This document shows positions 9,658 through 63,001 of a stretch of 64,000 bases of DNA, piece after piece; within the stretch, counting starts at the first letter, position 1; every line of letters begins with the position of its first letter. The notes beneath the pieces are model-generated. The model worked only from the letters and a program-made list of their open reading frames with translations. It was not told where the DNA came from and did not search any database. The stretch lies in the sequence record PP526765; one strand, given 5' to 3'. The position numbers and the translations under genes are program-made. The stretch is from Escherichia phage HK3.

Positions 9658-9669
9658 TAGTTTACAATA

Positions 9670-9692
9670 GGCTGCTTCGGCGGCCTTTTTTA
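9670..9692 (+). terminator. rho-independent terminator
   Basis: GGCTGC-TTCG-GCGGCC hairpin (tetraloop) then TTTTTT. Confidence 0.7.
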
Positions 9693-9721
9693 TTTGTATT
9701 TTGTGCAGAGTGCTGTATAAT
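9693..9721 (+). promoter_or_regulatory. sigma70-like promoter TTTGTA-N17-TATAAT
   Basis: consensus -10 TATAAT at 9716-9721; spacer contains TGTGCAG, the core of the 14.2 kb direct repeats. Confidence 0.5.
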
Positions 9722-9752: not shown

Positions 9753-10301
9753 ATGAAGAAGTTGATTCTAGGTTTGTGCTTAATGTTTACAGCACACTTA
9801 TCTTATGCAGTTGACTGCCCAGAGCTATCAATTAGCCAAAAAGTAAACATGTTAAAAGCTTACCAGTATGGTGAGAATAATATGGGTAAAGGTTGGGGTA
9901 TCACTCTAGCTGCTATAGCCTTACAAGAGTCAGAGTTAGGTCTGAAGGTAGAGAATAAAAAGACCCATGACTATGGTATCTTCCAGAATCACTTGAAGAC
10001 TGTTGTAAAGCGTAACAAAATCAGTCCTAATGTGGCTAAAAAGAAACTCTTAAAAGATTTTGACTATGCTGCAAAGGAAACACACAAAGAGCTTGAATTT
10101 TGGACTAAGGTACACGGTCAACCAAAGTCAAAGAAGACTTTACAAAAAGTTTTAGCATCATATAATGCTGGGTATTCGTACAAAATTCCTAAAGCTAAGA
10201 AATACTCTCAAGATGTCTATAACAATATGAAAGTCATCGCTCAATGTGAATTTGCAACAAACATTTCTAAGGTAAATCATGAAAAAATTAAGAAAGTCTG
10301 A
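9753..10301 (+). CDS. secreted lytic-transglycosylase-like protein
   Basis: N-terminal signal peptide (MKKLILGLCLMFTAHLSYA); ..ALQESELG...DYGIFQN resembles the SLT-domain catalytic E-S plus GLMQ-like motif. Confidence 0.45.
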   Translation: MKKLILGLCLMFTAHLSYAVDCPELSISQKVNMLKAYQYGENNMGKGWGITLAAIALQESELGLKVENKKTHDYGIFQNHLKTVVKRNKISPNVAKKKLLKDFDYAAKETHKELEFWTKVHGQPKSKKTLQKVLASYNAGYSYKIPKAKKYSQDVYNNMKVIAQCEFATNISKVNHEKIKKV

Positions 10302-11471: not shown

Positions 11472-11493
11472 GGAGCCTTTTTCATTTCAGGAG
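11472..11493 (+). terminator. rho-independent terminator
   Basis: GGCTCC-TTCG-GGAGCC hairpin plus TTTTT. Confidence 0.7.
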
Positions 11494-12905: not shown

Positions 12906-13099
12906 AAAGACCCGCAAGATTGTACGTTCAGCAGTATTTATTGGAAGAAATGAAGTGATTCCTTTTACAGCAAATGATGTGATAGCCTACAGGAAAAAAT
13001 TAGCATTCAGTTATTGCTTACGTGGCTTTATCTCCCAGCCATTGGAAGACTTTAAAAGTCGTTGTGGTAAAGGTATCATCATTCAAGAGGCAATTATCA

Positions 13100-13300
13100 A
13101 TGGCTGACTTCTGCAAAGACTGTTCTATCGAAATGTTTGGACGTGATACAGGTGACTTAAAAGGTCTTATCACTGAAGACGACTTTAAAGCTGGTTATGC
13201 AATGCCAGTAATCTGTGAAGGTTGTGGGTGTATCTGGGTAGACCACGAAGGGCAACGTGTAAAACCTTCAGAGGATAAAGAATCTTGGGAGAGATGCTAA
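13100..13300 (+). CDS. small Cys-rich protein (CxxC...CxGC, 66 aa)
   Basis: ATG at 13100 (MADFCKDCS...ICEGCGC); stop overlaps next start (TAAATG). Confidence 0.35.
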   Translation: MADFCKDCSIEMFGRDTGDLKGLITEDDFKAGYAMPVICEGCGCIWVDHEGQRVKPSEDKESWERC

Positions 13301-14086
13301 ATGGGTATTGTAAAAATCATCAATGGGGATATCTTCTCCGCATTTGATAAAGGTAAGTTTGATATCATTGGTCACGGTTGTAACTGTATGAACTTAATGG
13401 GTGCGGGTATCGCTGACAAGATTTCTAAACTTTACCCAAAAGCATATGAGACCGATACAGAAGTTTATCTGTATGCAGGCGGTATAGGCCACAAACCCTG
13501 TGAAAATTTACTAGGCAACTTCTCTGTAGCACGTTTAGAACAAGGCCGTATAGCTAACCTTTACACTCAGCTTAAGACTGGTAAAGATGCCCGATACAGT
13601 GCTTTAGAGTCATCTTTGAAACAACTTAACAGATACTGTGAAGTTAATCAGTTGAAGAAAGTTGGTTTACCTATGATTAGTGCAGGTATCGGTGGACTTG
13701 ACCCTCAAGCCGTCACCGTTATCATTAATCAGGTGATGAAGAGTGTAGATGTCTATCTATATGTCTACGAAGGAGAGATGTACCACAAGTTACGCTCAGG
13801 TTGGAAGAACTACTGTGAACCAGAATACTTTGCAGGTGTAGTAGTGTTCACTGACGATGCAGTTACCCTCTTCAGACGAAGAAAAGGTAAGGTACATCAA
13901 AGTAACCCTCCGGTTGAAAAGATGTCTCTAAGTAACGCTCTAGTTACCCACCTGTCGAAGAGCAATCACAGAATTGCAGTAACATTTGGCAGTGATGCAG
14001 ATACATATATCTATGCAAGAACTGATGAGGATGTTGAGGGAATTTTCTCTTCACCGGAAGTTACCTTCTTAGACGCAAAGAACTAA
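13301..14086 (+). CDS. macro-domain protein, TARG1/OARD1-like ADP-ribose hydrolase fold, with C-terminal extension
   Basis: GDIF...DIIGHGCNCMNLMGAGIA and LPMISAGIGGLD match the TARG1-type macro motifs (GDLF...HCISEDCRMGAGIA...MPRIGCGLD) as recalled. Confidence 0.55.
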   Translation: MGIVKIINGDIFSAFDKGKFDIIGHGCNCMNLMGAGIADKISKLYPKAYETDTEVYLYAGGIGHKPCENLLGNFSVARLEQGRIANLYTQLKTGKDARYSALESSLKQLNRYCEVNQLKKVGLPMISAGIGGLDPQAVTVIINQVMKSVDVYLYVYEGEMYHKLRSGWKNYCEPEYFAGVVVFTDDAVTLFRRRKGKVHQSNPPVEKMSLSNALVTHLSKSNHRIAVTFGSDADTYIYARTDEDVEGIFSSPEVTFLDAKN

Positions 14087-14161
14087 GAAACTCTGTAGAA
14101 TATTCACAATAGACTAAGCCTTTCTTATCTGGTAAATTTTCAGGTAAGGAGGGCTTTTTCA

Positions 14162-14352
14162 TTTTAGAATTGTGCAGGTAGAGTTCTGGACAGAAATCTG
14201 TAGAGAGAATTTTGAACTCCAAAGAGAAAATTCATTTTCAAACTGTGCAGGTAATCTCCAAAGAGCTTTTTCATTTTCAAAATGTGCAGAGAAAAATCAG
14301 GTCGGGCAAGAAAAATCATTTTCGAATTGTGCAGGTAGGTGGGTGCAGGTGG
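14162..14352. repeat. four direct repeats, consensus TTTTCATTTTCRAAWTGTGCAGGTA (iteron-like)
   Basis: copies near 14162, 14236, 14272, 14318; no credible coding capacity. Confidence 0.7.
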
Positions 14353-14513
14353 GGATGTCGCCATTTCTCACAAGGCTACCACATCCGAAAAGAAAAGTCA
14401 ACAGAAAAATTTGTAGCGGATTGAAAAATAATTCTTGATTTGTGTTCTGTTTTGTGGTATTCGCGCGCACCCGTTTCATTACATTTTTGCCAAAAATATT
14501 TTTAAAATTTTTA

Positions 14514-14542
14514 TTGACTCATCGAACGGGTTTTTATAGTAT
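14514..14542 (+). promoter_or_regulatory. strong sigma70-like promoter TTGACT-N17-TAGTAT with A/T-rich UP-like tract
   Basis: read directly; flanked by inverted 7-mers ACCCGTT (14470) and AACGGGT (14525); heads the small-ORF array. Confidence 0.6.
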
Positions 14543-14595
14543 CTGCATCAGACGGGGCGACAAGCCCGATAGCCTTAAACTAGGAGATTCAAAAA

Positions 14596-14802
14596 ATGAT
14601 TTACAGCCGTGAATTGATGGTCACAACTAACGTTAACACAAAGGTAAAACGTTTTTATATGCAAGTATGCGGCGCATGGCGTAGAATATCAGAATCTGAC
14701 TATTGCAACTATGTAGAAACGGCTATTAATTCTAATTGCTATCTTACAAAGAATACAAAGCGACATATAAAACAGACAGCGGTTTACTATTACGATATAT
14801 AA
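14596..14802 (+). CDS. array small ORF 1 (68 aa)
   Basis: ATG 8 nt after TAGGAGA in conserved cassette. Confidence 0.5.
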   Translation: MIYSRELMVTTNVNTKVKRFYMQVCGAWRRISESDYCNYVETAINSNCYLTKNTKRHIKQTAVYYYDI

Positions 14803-14892
14803 AAAGTACTTTACAGGGGGCTTAAAAGCTGATATCTTAAGCCCCAGATAAAGAACTTTACCACATTAACCTTAAACTAGGAGATTCAAAAA

Positions 14893-15273
14893 ATGGCATA
14901 TCGTGCACCTAAATTCATCAATAAAGACAACTTCCGCAACGCACTGGAAAAATCACTTGATGAGAATTTTACAGGTCAGATTATTGTTGTTCACGCATTC
15001 AATTTTAAGTATGATATTAACGGGAACAGAATCAACCATTACACGGCAACCATGTTAGATGGTACACTATCAAGTGAAAAAGCTGTACTGAATGCACTTG
15101 CAGGACGTGGCAAAAACCTGATAAAATGCAATAAGAGACGTTATCAGGGCGGCGCATATGGTTATGATGACGCTGTTTACCATCTTGAAAATATGGGCTA
15201 TCAGGTGGAAAAAGCTGGGGTCTCTCAAATAATCGGCAGTGACGGCTATGTGACAATTTTCAAAATTAACTAA
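14893..15273 (+). CDS. array small ORF 2 (126 aa)
   Basis: conserved cassette upstream. Confidence 0.55.
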   Translation: MAYRAPKFINKDNFRNALEKSLDENFTGQIIVVHAFNFKYDINGNRINHYTATMLDGTLSSEKAVLNALAGRGKNLIKCNKRRYQGGAYGYDDAVYHLENMGYQVEKAGVSQIIGSDGYVTIFKIN

Positions 15274-15363
15274 TAAAGTACTTTACAAGGGGCTTATAGT
15301 TCGATAAAGTAAGCCCCAGATAAAGAACTTTACCACATTAACCTTAAACTAGGAGATTCAAAA

Positions 15364-15621
15364 ATGGCTATTATCAAAAACGTTACAATCCCTGCAAAAA
15401 CTCGTGATGACGCTCGCGTTATGGCTAAAAAGTTATGCGGAAAAGTGGTTGACAACGGAAAAAAATCTGCTGTAAGATGGGGTGTAAAGGTTGATAAATG
15501 TTTAACCTTAAAACGTAATTCAAACAACCTTTTTAAAGGTGTAAAATCACTCGGTAAAGTGAACGTTTTTACCAAAAAAGGCTATAAAATGCACTTATCA
15601 TTAACTTGCAATTTAATCTGA
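15364..15621 (+). CDS. array small ORF 3 (85 aa, basic)
   Basis: conserved cassette upstream. Confidence 0.5.
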   Translation: MAIIKNVTIPAKTRDDARVMAKKLCGKVVDNGKKSAVRWGVKVDKCLTLKRNSNNLFKGVKSLGKVNVFTKKGYKMHLSLTCNLI

Positions 15622-15711
15622 TAAAGTACTTTACATGGGGCTTAAAAGCTGATATCTTAAGCCCCAGATAAAGAACTTTACCACTAAATCCTTAAACTAG
15701 GAGATTCTAAA

Positions 15712-16008
15712 ATGAAATTATCGAATAACGTTCGTGAAAATCTAAGCAAATTACTCAATAAAATCGATTTTATTGAGACCTCAAGAAATACTCATGCGGT
15801 TATGGAATGGATACACGGCAAAATAAAAGGCCGTCGTGTGGTGATTTGCTTATGGAATAGTTGCAGGGAGTATAAAAAACCTGTATTACAAATTAATGTT
15901 TATGATAATACTTTTAAAAGCCCTGTAAAGTCTAAAAGTGACTTATTAGAATCTTATGAGATAACTTTAAATGGTAAGGTATCACGTAAAGAGGAAACAC
16001 CATGTTAA
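15712..16008 (+). CDS. array small ORF 4 (98 aa)
   Basis: conserved cassette upstream. Confidence 0.5.
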   Translation: MKLSNNVRENLSKLLNKIDFIETSRNTHAVMEWIHGKIKGRRVVICLWNSCREYKKPVLQINVYDNTFKSPVKSKSDLLESYEITLNGKVSRKEETPC

Positions 16009-16423: not shown

Positions 16424-16696
16424 ATGTATACTACTAACAACGGTCGAACCTTAAACGTAACACTGCGCCACTATGTAAACGGTGTAATGCACTTCGAAGA
16501 TTTACAAGCTGAACAACATATTTTGGATTGGCAACTTGCAGGATTCCAAAAAACTGCTACCGGATACGGGAAAAAGATTCCAACTAGTTGGAAAGTATAC
16601 TACGAAGGCCGTTTGCGCAGAATTTATCAGGATGTTTACAGCAATAGCGCAAAAAGTTACATCATGGTAAAAGGTAAAAAATTACACTTAGTGTAA
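16424..16696 (+). CDS. array small ORF 6 (90 aa)
   Basis: type B cassette upstream. Confidence 0.5.
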   Translation: MYTTNNGRTLNVTLRHYVNGVMHFEDLQAEQHILDWQLAGFQKTATGYGKKIPTSWKVYYEGRLRRIYQDVYSNSAKSYIMVKGKKLHLV

Positions 16697-17583: not shown

Positions 17584-18126
17584 ATGAAATGCTTTCACGG
17601 TACTACTCAAGAAAATTTTGTCAACCTGATTAATAACGGTGATAAGCCATCAGGCGCATGGAATTGTTCGGATATGGATGGGAATTTTTACGTTTATCCA
17701 GAAAATAAAATCTATGGTGACGATGAGGAAGAAATAGTCTCTGAAGGTATCCAGCAAGCTCTGGGCAATGCCGCTATCACCGCAGCTTTCCAGATGAAAA
17801 CTCAAAACATTGTTATCTTGGAACTTGATATTCCAGAAGATGAGTTAAATGATGATTATTCTTGCGATAATATGTCTGGCGTGGCAAGTTTTACAGAATA
17901 TTTCGATTTAAACTGGATTAAAAAGGTTTACACCACTGAATTCAATGCCATGTTTTCGCCATTTTGTCTTCCTTCACTGGATAACCCGAATTTAAACTAT
18001 ATTGATGAGTCTCTGGAACTTCTCGCTAAAAGTGTTCAGCAATCAGACAGTATTCAGGTTTTTTGTGACATCATGGACACACTGACGGGAAACATCGCAG
18101 AAAGAGATTTAAAGGGCTTTTTCTAA
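17584..18126 (+). CDS. array small ORF 9 (180 aa, acidic)
   Basis: type A cassette upstream. Confidence 0.55.
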   Translation: MKCFHGTTQENFVNLINNGDKPSGAWNCSDMDGNFYVYPENKIYGDDEEEIVSEGIQQALGNAAITAAFQMKTQNIVILELDIPEDELNDDYSCDNMSGVASFTEYFDLNWIKKVYTTEFNAMFSPFCLPSLDNPNLNYIDESLELLAKSVQQSDSIQVFCDIMDTLTGNIAERDLKGFF

Positions 18127-20329: not shown

Positions 20330-21890
20330 ATCAAATCCCTTTCCTTTCCCTTTCCAGAATCTATCTCATACCTTAAAAAGCAATAACTCTATAGCTTACT
20401 CTATAGCCTTTTATTAAATCAACTTAAATATAAGCCCATAACCCGAAAGGGAAGGGCAACCGTTTAAACGCTCTATAAAGCCCTATAACGGCCTTATTAA
20501 CATAACTTAAGGGATTGCATTACCTAACCCTTAAAAGCCCTTTATAAAGCTTTCTAGGGGCTTAAAAGAGCCTTAAAAGAATCTTATAAGGGTGTAAGCT
20601 TTATCATCTCGTTAGTTATCTTGTGAACTACTAAAAAGGGCTTGTCAGTGTCTTAAAAGTATGTTATAGGGGCTATAAAGTTGCTTAAAAGTTGCTTAAA
20701 AGTTACGTAAATGCTAGCCCCCTTAACATTTTCTTAACAATTTCTTAACAAACCCTACATAGTTATGCTTTCAAGACACTTGTTAGTAACTTGTTAGCCC
20801 CTTGTTAAATCTCTGTTAAGACCACGTAAAAGCTTTGTAAGAGCCTTTGACATAGCCTTTAAAGCTCCTGTAAAGCCCTATAAAGAGCTTTCTACATAGT
20901 TGGGGTGGAATTACTAGAAAGAGACTAAAAAGAGCTTATAAGGAGCTATAGAGAGCTTTTAAAAGGGCTGTTTAAAAGGTCACTAAGAAAGGAAAGGGAA
21001 CGATAAGACCAGAGATAGTGACCATGTTAATAGATTGTTAAAAAGGTTAAACACTTGTTAGGAACTTGTTAATTATCTTAACAAAATAACTCTTTAAAAT
21101 TAACTATTTAGCCCTTGTTAGTCATCTGTTAATCCTCTGTAAAGACTATGTATCAACTGTTAAGAAACTGTTACCCTCTTGTTAAAACTGTTAAGAATCT
21201 GTTAAGTCCTCTGAAGAGATGTTAAAAGGTTGTAGCAACTGTTAAGAGATTGTTAATGATATTTTAAAATTTTGCAAAGGGGGTGTTAAGGAGCTGTTAA
21301 GGGCTACCAAGCAGATATACATCCTAGACAGATATTTTTGAGTTCCTTCAAAGACCCTAAAAAATGACTTGATAGTCCTATTTTATAAAAATTTTAAAAT
21401 TCTGAATAATTACCTAGACAGTCTTTTAAAAATACAGGCATAAACAGGCTTATAAGATACCTTGTTAATACCGTGTTAGACCTTGTGAGATAAGGTCTGT
21501 AAAGATATTCCTGTTAAGTTTGTTAAAACAGCCTATATAGAGGCTTAGTAATACCTAGTGAACACCTATAGAGGGTAACATAGTTGACCTAATGGGTTAC
21601 TGTTAAGTAACACAGGTAACCTAGAGATTAAGAGGTGTATAGGGGCTTCTAAGAGGGTGTAGAGGTATGGTTAAGGTGATTGTATAGGTTGTTAAGAAGG
21701 CTTGTTAGAGGGCTGTTTAGAAGGGCTATACAGATGGCTATTAAGACCACTAGATAGATACTAAGATACTATATAGTACTATATAACTATATAGAGAGTA
21801 AGCTTAAGAAGGTTGTTAAGAAGGGTAGATATTTTATTCACATATGCTGGTGACCCAGAGGTTGGGACAACCGATGAAATTTTATAAAAA
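20330..21890. repeat. 1.6 kb ORF-free field dense in degenerate 8-mers (CTGTTAAG, CTTGTTAR, CTTAAAAG, CTATAAAG) with AT-rich palindromes
   Basis: no ORF of 60 aa or more on either strand; CTGTTAAG-type units recur about every 11 bp in 21150-21270; ACTATATAGTACTATATA palindromes at 21760-21800. Confidence 0.75.
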
Positions 21891-28887: not shown

Positions 28888-29259
28888 ATGAAAAACAGAA
28901 CAAACAAAGGCCAGTTTAAAAAAGGCCAGTCTGGAAACCCATCTGGAAGACCAAAAGGCTCTCGTAACAAAAGCTCACTTGTAAAAGCTCAACTGACCAT
29001 TGATAATTCTGCTGAGTTCGCTGCAAAGCTGTTTGAGGCGATTGTTACAAGGGACGCGGCTAAGCTTGCAGAGTTCGGTTTGACGACTGACGATGTAAAC
29101 CTGAAGTCAATGATGGAAGCTGGTAAAACTATCATGACCCACTCAGCAGGTGAGATGAAAGCCATTGCAGCAGACACTAAGAAGACTCCTGATAATGGTG
29201 GTCAACAACAGACAGATAACAAACCAACGTTCTCTGCTGTAGCGACTCTCAAAAAATAA
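28888..29259 (+). CDS. hypothetical protein with N-terminal basic motif KKGQSGNPSGRPKGSRN
   Basis: ORF track; function not assigned. Confidence 0.5.
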   Translation: MKNRTNKGQFKKGQSGNPSGRPKGSRNKSSLVKAQLTIDNSAEFAAKLFEAIVTRDAAKLAEFGLTTDDVNLKSMMEAGKTIMTHSAGEMKAIAADTKKTPDNGGQQQTDNKPTFSAVATLKK

Positions 29260-62671: not shown

Positions 62672-63001
62672 TTAATCTGCCAACCTTAAATTAAAATTAA
62701 CACCAAATTTTTCGCATACTTCCAACATAAACTCAAGAGAGACATTACCAGTGAGATTGATTATGTTGGATACACGAGCCTGAGAGATACCACAAATTTT
62801 AGCAACTTGCTCTTGAGAAAGACCTCTGGATTTAATCTCTCTCTTAAAACGATGTGCAACGAAGTCTCTCATTTCGTCTACATCCATTGGACAAATATAA
62901 CTCTCCATTTCAGCCTCTCTGTCAGCCTCCCAATCATCTTGTGGAGCATAAGGGTCAAAAACCTCATTCATCTTTCTTCTTCCGTTTGCGTGAAGTGTCA
63001 A
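62672..63001 (-). CDS. XRE-type helix-turn-helix DNA-binding protein
   Basis: LSQEQVAKICGISQARVSNI matches the XRE-family HTH pattern. Confidence 0.55.
   Translation of the reverse strand: MTLHANGRRKMNEVFDPYAPQDDWEADREAEMESYICPMDVDEMRDFVAHRFKREIKSRGLSQEQVAKICGISQARVSNIINLTGNVSLEFMLEVCEKFGVNFNLRLAD

Follow-up and report, generated by a model that had tools for sequence, protein, structure and literature searches.

The window analysed here comprises 64,000 nt of Escherichia phage HK3 (sequence record PP526765), a Felix O1-like myovirus of the genus Felixounavirus, and includes a gap of 509 bp (14087–14595) that holds an array of four direct repeats, here called boxes. The gap is located between a gene for a 261 aa protein (ending at 14086), annotated in relatives as a macro-domain protein and often named 'phosphatase', and an open reading frame (ORF) of 68 aa (starting at 14596), with a series of small hypothetical proteins annotated downstream. 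The consensus TCATTTTCRAAWTGTGCAG was matched on the plus strand with 0–1 mismatches at 14159–14177, 14232–14250, 14271–14289 and 14316–14334. Shuffled windows gave a mean of 0.07 matches and none of 100 shuffles gave four, which bears out the claim of an earlier, sequence-only reading of this DNA that four direct repeats lie upstream of the small ORFs. A repeat finder placed the four copies in one family, with a unit reaching leftward into an A/T run and a ACTCCAAAGAG-like spacer. The short core TGTGCAG occurs nine times on the plus strand and seven times on the minus strand of the window, with about 8 expected (an estimate for both strands summed), so that the 7-mer alone would have been no evidence for a functional site.

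The conserved unit is a 20-mer, TCATTT-N7-GTGCA(G/T), in which the blocks TCATTT (positions 0–5) and GTGCA (positions 13–17) are invariant in 28–37 unique copies and lie about 12 bp apart, separated by seven variable, A/T-rich bases. The copies were gathered with a pattern fixing both blocks, and an earlier mismatch-tolerant search gave the same copies. The sequence-only reading had proposed a 25-mer within 14162–14352; the repeats themselves stood, but the ends of the 25-mer are only loosely matched (copy 3 ends in AGAG, not GGTA), and the array spans 14155–14337 with an additional half-box on the plus strand (GTGCAGGTGG, 14343–14352). A scan with a 21-position weight matrix reached at most 16.7 bits in 30 shuffled windows, and exactly five sites in the window exceeded this maximum. 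Four of these are the array boxes, all on the plus strand: box 1 at 14159–14178 (TCATTTTAGAATTGTGCAGG, 31.6 bits), box 2 at 14232–14251 (TCATTTTCAAACTGTGCAGG, 31.7 bits), box 3 at 14271–14290 (TCATTTTCAAAATGTGCAGA, 30.4 bits) and box 4 at 14316–14335 (TCATTTTCGAATTGTGCAGG, 30.0 bits). Box 3 contains an apparent palindrome (CATTTT-c-AAAATG), which is fully complementary in only one of 28 unique copies, with one pair complementary in four of 28. Since this inner palindrome is not kept, the box is asymmetric, and a palindromic dimer site or hairpin was ruled out.

The fifth site above the shuffle maximum is an isolated box (TTATTTGTATTTTGTGCAGA, 9690–9709, plus strand, 19.4 bits), located directly downstream of the terminator hairpin that follows rIIB (9669–9686, plus strand) and on the −35/spacer position of a plus-strand promoter. 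The sequence-only reading had noticed only the TGTGCAG core in the promoter at 9693–9721, which understated the case, as the whole box is present. The promoter has a consensus −10 element (TATAAT, 9716–9721), and its best −35 element matches at only three of six positions (TTTGTA, 9693–9698); the box occupies −38 to −19, 7 bases upstream of the TATAAT. Across Felixounavirus and Mooglevirus this box has invariant TTATTT and GTGCAG blocks, and both the TATAAT and the distance to it are fixed, with variable bases in between, and the fifth box was found at the same site in phages Ro111lw and Bas63. The array boxes match the consensus far better than the promoter box does, and all five point in the same direction as transcription. 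For the 23 kb of genome beyond the window, the Ro111lw sequence was scanned with the weight matrix and contained no further site. A box associated with a promoter in Kolesnikvirus was also considered and rejected, with only chance-level one-mismatch matches being present. The gene downstream of the box-bearing promoter (9753–10301, plus strand, with the ATG read as 9754) encodes a product with a signal peptide-like N-terminus; its match to the SLT transglycosylase domain is weak and falls short of the curated cut-off (E = 0.0012).

A megablast search with 13000–16000 matched 255 phage records, mostly at 90–95% identity, and in a sensitive BLAST mode the gap was matched by 290 records, including 27 Erwinia phage records that align only at query positions 145–247, the repeat segment. 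The array is thus the sole alignable part of the gap in these Erwinia phages (Kolesnikvirus). Inspection of the boxes in relatives, which covered about 20 loci, showed four syntenic copies following the macro-domain gene in Felix O1a, ASO1A, Ro111lw, Bas63, EC106, Moogle, Sf17 and three Erwinia Kolesnikvirus phages, so that three genera (Felixounavirus, Mooglevirus and Kolesnikvirus) share the array at the same place within diverged non-coding DNA. In a MAFFT alignment of Felixounavirus with Mooglevirus the boxes were 78–88% identical, as compared to approximately 50–57% for the gene end, the terminator hairpin and the variable stretch. A natural variant with three boxes is found in Salmonella phage pSJ21 (locus L026, 1040–1270), in which unrelated DNA stands in for the end of the macro-domain gene, the terminator and the left part of the gap, and again carries a near-consensus box (34 bits) immediately behind its own terminator. 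A scan for two adjacent boxes in the 2.9 million viral contigs of IMG/VR matched only eight contigs, all of 84–91 kb, and those in which the region is intact carry four copies each; this suggests that the array is restricted to the Felix O1-like group, as far as the sequences at hand go.

The spacing of the boxes differs between lineages, with start-to-start distances of 73/39/45 bp in the window, 75/41/45 bp in Mooglevirus, 77/39/45 bp in a metagenomic relative (L017) and 37/37/39 bp in Kolesnikvirus. The sequence-only reading had called the region ORF-free, which does not hold literally: mechanical ORFs of 53–88 aa cross the array on both strands, and several records annotate genes over it, on differing strands (Felix O1a gp14, Moogle gp115, Ro111lw_00140, Roscha1_00126, Fifi318 gp93 and bas63_0096/0097). 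The claim most likely holds in the sense of non-coding DNA, as the reading frames over the array are broken among relatives by indels of 2–4 bp between copies, with differences that are not multiples of three. Because of these frame-breaking indels and the disagreement on the strand we consider the annotated ORFs spurious, and reject them as real genes; many GenBank records therefore place protein genes on DNA that is almost certainly non-coding and forms a regulatory array. These comparisons show DNA-level selection on the boxes in all three genera, and the boxes behave as a selected cis-element that a sequence-specific DNA-binding protein would read. All four boxes of Kolesnikvirus end in GTGCAT-A, in contrast to GTGCAG-G/A in the other genera, and this shared change from GTGCAG-G to GTGCAT-A suggests co-evolution with a diverging binding protein.

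The array is flanked by several other elements within the gap. An intrinsic terminator predicted by a terminator scan ends the upstream operon (14116–14166, plus strand), with a 17 bp stem at 14116–14156 and a T-tract running into box 1. This terminator is annotated after the macro-domain gene in ASO1A, its hairpin is kept in all genera, and it was the sole stable element in the RNA fold of the region. Downstream of box 4, the half-box opens a variable cassette (14338–14386), which appears to be swappable: it is G-rich in the window, Ro111lw and Bas63, and its equivalents in Felix O1, Mooglevirus and Kolesnikvirus are strongly C-rich and G-poor (CCCCTCTTACTCCCC...) and would resemble a Rho-utilisation site on plus-strand RNA. 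The cassette is followed by a non-coding block (AAAAGTCAAsAGAAAAATTTGTAG..TTGAAAAATAATTCTTGA, 14387–14440, plus strand) with an identity of 0.85 between Felixounavirus and Mooglevirus, as compared to approximately 0.5 in its flanks, and hence conserved between these genera to the same degree as the boxes. This block also holds a conserved minus-strand TTGACT (14396–14401), a possible −35 element of a leftward promoter into the array, with a weak and variable matching −10 element. Finally, an A+T-rich tract and a σ70-type promoter together occupy 14477–14542 (plus strand). The promoter itself (TTGACT-N17-TAGTAT, 14514–14542), the first of the terminal block of small ORFs, is annotated in ASO1A and has its TTGACT kept in all three genera. 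It starts 176 bp past box 4, in agreement with the approximately 170 bp given by the sequence-only reading, and the array boxes are thus 176–355 bp upstream of the first early promoter, directly past a strong terminator.

The physical ends of the genome correspond to a direct terminal repeat of approximately 600 bp at 20717–21308 of the window. The Ro111lw record has an identical 613 bp sequence at both ends, which maps to this segment, several other records open exactly at the segment and carry it twice, and six Danish phages have an annotated repeat region. A 613 bp terminal repeat was predicted for Ro111lw using PhageTerm (PMC6454146), and Bal31 digestion with run-off sequencing gave a terminal repeat of 608 bp in the Felix O1-like phage UAB_Phi87 (PMC4837284). 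The array is located 7.0–7.15 kb inside the right end, with the early promoter and about seventeen small ORFs in between, directed toward that end; a packaging site with pac- or cos-type terminase repeats was excluded, as the ends are approximately 7 kb from the array. The ORF-free DNA around the ends (20450–21500) contains dense short repeats at a spacing of 11 bp, i.e. one helical turn (e.g. CTTGTTAR/CTGTTAA and GCTTAAAAG), which are more iteron-like than the array and are candidates for terminase recognition or end-replication signals.

The terminal block itself shows further features. A repeated unit is present before almost every small ORF (at 14809, 15281, 15629, 16701 and 17501 on the plus strand, and also at 14570–14598 and 14867–14895), consisting of a TTTACA-type −35 element, a G+C-rich hairpin (GGGGCTTAAAAG...CTTAAGCCCC) in spacer/terminator position and a near-identical ribosome-binding stretch (CCTTAAACTAGGAGATTCAAAAAATG), with 8 matches versus 0.03 expected. 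Four small ORFs of the block have Kolesnikvirus homologues, two of these being basic. An early protein of 180 aa (17584–18126, plus strand; isoelectric point 4.1) is kept in the three genera and has a charge in the range of DNA-mimic anti-restriction proteins, with no family match. Outside the block, a 123 aa protein just before the tRNA cluster (28888–29259, plus strand) matches Pfam DUF5681 (E = 7e-14). Its identity of 61% with the Kolesnikvirus counterpart is unusually high for a small uncharacterised protein.

Experimental data bearing on the array are available from a preprint on PhageMaP, in which barcodes of approximately 100 bp were inserted at Cas9 cut sites in every annotated gene. 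In Bas63 two 'genes' are annotated over the array on the minus strand, bas63_0096 and bas63_0097, and PhageMaP scores cover 'gene 96', for which all possible Cas9 sites are within or between boxes 1–4. Its score ranged from +0.24 to +1.06 on several hosts, similar to adjoining dispensable genes, with scores of −1.9 to −4.1 for terminase and portal on MG1655. As 'gene 96' scores like dispensable genes and all of its Cas9 sites are in the array, insertion into the array is tolerated; in the laboratory the Bas63 array is not essential, nor is its spacing critical. The sequence-only reading had regarded conservation in related phages and an effect of deletion on transcription or replication as decisive; the repeats are conserved in relatives, and insertion into the Bas63 array had no measurable fitness cost.

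Candidate binding proteins were searched for among phage and host factors. The sequence-only reading had pointed to the helix-turn-helix (HTH) protein encoded at 62672–63001 (minus strand), which is a genuine Cro/C1-type HTH protein (HTH_3, E = 5e-11, Pfam) and which, as Bas63 gp35, appears important for fitness, with a PhageMaP score of about −1.2 in Bas63. It was nevertheless rejected as the array binder, being absent from Kolesnikvirus phages that keep the array: a homologue was undetectable in the complete Fifi318 genome, and the syntenic Fifi318 proteins are without an HTH domain. In its distribution the HTH_3 protein follows the fifth box and not the array. Also rejected were two early proteins that are small and basic, A (15712–16008) and B (16424–16696), with no Pfam or PDB sequence match and only shallow sets of homologues; the predicted model of protein B is all-beta and without a significant structural neighbour, and that of protein A was too uncertain for a structure search (predicted local distance difference test score 61). 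Among the proteins searched with Pfam, the HTH_3 protein was the only recognisable transcription factor, and none of ten nearby or conserved small proteins gave an initiator-like match. With respect to host factors, scans with the DnaA, IHF, Fis and CRP consensus sequences were at or below chance (two DnaA one-mismatch sites versus 1.4 expected, and one IHF site versus 1.0), and resemblance to Fur, OmpR, marbox, sigma-E and sigma-54 motifs, as judged by eye and by reasoning only, failed at key positions. The E. coli genomes themselves do not contain a close copy of the box, with one marginal match in 5,426 genomes.

We tentatively favour the reading that the four boxes are recognised by a single transcription regulator, sequence-specific and probably phage-encoded, which would control the border between the rIIB-to-macro-domain operon and the small early genes. 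The asymmetric conservation at DNA level, the low number of copies, the presence of one copy at the place of a −35 element and the coordinated change in one genus all point to regulator sites, and recognition as asymmetric DNA is suggested by the palindrome not being kept, the lack of an Rfam match and the lack of a fold beyond the terminator. The sequence-only reading had proposed a binding array for one protein, serving either as a switch for early transcription or as replication origin. Selection at the DNA level supports a binding array, the fifth box on a promoter favours the switch, and the origin failed most of the tests applied. At the fifth-box promoter the putative protein may substitute for the −35 contact as an activator, like MotA of phage T4, or may occlude RNA polymerase as a repressor, and the four stronger boxes could form a multi-protein complex. 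As the nearest −35 element is 176 bp away, a classical operator mechanism does not apply to the array boxes. Instead, the array could work as a sink of high affinity and so set the timing or threshold at which the weaker box on the promoter responds, it could serve the early promoter as an upstream element or remote operator, or it could keep read-through out of the early block. The sites probably act additively and not as a precisely phased nucleoprotein machine, because the spacing is loose and insertion is tolerated.

Several observations weigh against a regulator array. The four array boxes overlap no promoter, and the complete Kolesnikvirus genome of Fifi318 has the array only, with no convincing promoter-associated fifth box; since Kolesnikvirus is without such a box, the idea of a sink plus a target is not general. 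No binder was found among the candidates tested (the HTH_3 protein and proteins A and B): the HTH_3 protein is present in approximately 260 Felixounavirus and Mooglevirus records and in no Erwinia phage, and the small basic proteins A and B, which are kept in all three genera, gave no DNA-binding fold. The array insertion came without fitness cost in Bas63 on laboratory hosts, and whatever the array regulates is for this reason dispensable on such hosts. In Felix O1, the timing of the neighbouring ORFs by reverse transcription-PCR (RT-PCR) was mixed. The Felix O1 genome paper leaves the temporal control of transcription unexplained, and a literature search for transcriptomics of this genus gave nothing usable. 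The array is undescribed as far as our literature search showed; it is not described in the genome papers of Felix O1, which listed only repeats of at least 24 bp, or of UAB_Phi87. The Felix O1-like phages are classic typing phages of Salmonella and find wide use in biocontrol and in collections for phage therapy, and the box with its five copies offers a concrete handle on their transcription timing and its putative regulator.

Among the other readings considered, a replication origin is unlikely. In this case a phage initiator would bind the four repeats as iterons and open nearby DNA, as at lambda ori or in plasmid iterons, and the strongly conserved array would indeed provide four direct repeats of approximately 20 bp in a long non-coding gap, the same number as in lambda ori, with an A+T-rich tract and a strong promoter <200 bp away. 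Promoter-primed origins are known in phages T7 and T4, and as origins can be individually dispensable in lytic phages such as these, the neutral PhageMaP insertion is compatible with an origin, even if tolerance of approximately 100 bp of additional DNA within the array speaks against one. However, the box spacing is not helically phased and shifts by 2–4 bp between genera, the array adjoins G+C-rich DNA (14327–14386 is only 40–47% A+T), and the A+T-rich tract (14477–14513) is 140 bp off, abuts the −35 element and looks like a promoter UP element. Boxes for DnaA, IHF and Fis are not enriched, no initiator is evident among the neighbours, which are the macro-domain gene and small ORFs without Pfam match, and an initiator site leaves the fifth box on a promoter unexplained. 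GC skew shows no switch at the array, and was rejected as an origin marker since it only tracks the direction of transcription.

The position of box 1 in the T-tract of a strong terminator with a 17 bp stem bears on two further readings. That the repeats function at the RNA level, where they would be bound repeatedly by an RNA-binding protein or act as a sponge in a read-through or antisense transcript, the latter starting from the leftward TTGACT at 14396–14401, is very unlikely: the array follows the terminator, and the fifth box is located after a terminator and upstream of the start of its own promoter, so would rarely be present in RNA. The orientation of all five boxes with transcription and the conserved minus-strand TTGACT just downstream of the array are consistent with such a role, and RT-PCR in Felix O1 showed that 'ORF14', annotated on top of the array, is transcribed with a maximum at 25 min, so that read-through or antisense transcription does occur to some extent. 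The −10 element of the leftward promoter is weak, variable and below the scan threshold, though, and the arm complementarity is not kept. Known or structured RNAs were rejected, with best Rfam matches of 17–23 bits versus gathering scores of 47–70 (E above 1) and a fold z-score of −1.8 that is due to the terminator only, so there is neither an Rfam family nor a significant fold beyond that hairpin. The terminator also underlies the suggestion that the array is a functionless remnant of tandem duplication of a terminator tail: both box 1 and the fifth box start inside a terminator T-tract, another terminator tail at 11479 reads TTTTCATTTC, the repeat unit runs into ACTCCAAAGAG spacers, and insertion is neutral. 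This is barely credible given that three or four copies are kept in three genera despite diverged or replaced spacers and flanks, and given the position-specific conservation and the coordinated change in Kolesnikvirus. The promoter that carries the fifth box at −38 to −19, whose −10 element is perfect and whose −35 element is poor, raises the prospect that each box is a phage-specific promoter for a modified host RNA polymerase, and the Felix O1 paper leaves temporal control unexplained. We consider such tandem promoters highly improbable, as none of the array boxes is followed by a −10-like hexamer at the spacing found for the fifth box, and a class of promoters would be expected in far more than five copies per genome. 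Equally hard to credit is a signal for DNA entry close to the genome end, with the array marking the inner border of the terminal ~8% and pausing or organising entry in the manner of the injection stop signal (iss) of phage T5. The array is indeed 6,971–7,150 bp from the right physical end, or approximately 8% of an estimated genome of 87–88 kb, the interval consists entirely of promoter-equipped small early ORFs transcribed toward that end, and the T5 iss is placed at 7.9% from the entering end. Two-step transfer was, however, not reported for phages of the Ounavirinae in the literature found, the gap has one family of boxes and no DnaA enrichment, unlike the T5 iss, and neither the fifth box on an internal promoter nor the neutral insertion into the array is accounted for. 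In its boundary form, by analogy with a minimal T5 iss, a host or virion protein at the array might pause or stage entry or insulate the terminal block, which we regard as similarly far-fetched.

Comparison with known systems places the regulator reading in context. With iteron origins the array shares four direct repeats of approximately 20 bp in non-coding DNA, but it differs in that helical phasing, an A+T-rich element directly beside the repeats, a recognisable initiator gene nearby and DnaA or IHF enrichment are all lacking, and in tolerating insertion. The T5 iss exceeds 1 kb and is an untranslated, conserved region of repeats, many of them inverted, that includes eight DnaA boxes; the array similarly belongs to an untranslated repeat region at ~8% from a physical end, bordering small early genes of the host-takeover type, but in a gap of only 509 bp without large inverted repeats, and with a terminal repeat of approximately 600 bp versus 10 kb in T5. 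Regulators of transcription provide closer parallels. The p4 protein of phage phi29 is a small regulator with about four sites in the early/late control region, some of which overlap promoter elements, and both represses and activates promoters of the host polymerase. Likewise, the array groups a handful of sites, about four, in the intergenic control DNA of a lytic phage. In phi29, dimers bind inverted repeats that are located on promoters, whereas here the boxes are asymmetric and the array is off promoters. The operators of the C1 repressor of phage P1 are asymmetric sites of 17 bp, scattered on the genome and often single or paired; the boxes resemble these in being asymmetric, in occurring at more than one locus and in having at least one copy overlapping a promoter, but P1 is temperate, and the phage described here is lytic, with four boxes grouped in a single array and a fifth that stands alone. 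The Pfam-scanned proteins included no C1 homologue, and only the HTH_3 protein turned up among them. In the middle promoters of T4, present in dozens per genome, a MotA box at −30 replaces the −35 element. The fifth box is comparable in its −35 placement, its fixed distance to a good −10 element and the poor −35 element, with the difference that there is one such promoter here and that the array boxes have no −10 element. Homologues of MotA and AsiA are absent according to the Felix O1 paper, and none turned up among the scanned proteins. While a demonstrated member of none of these systems, the array is by analogy most like the site clusters of phi29 p4 and P1 C1, and the fifth box is most like a −35 replacement of the MotA type.

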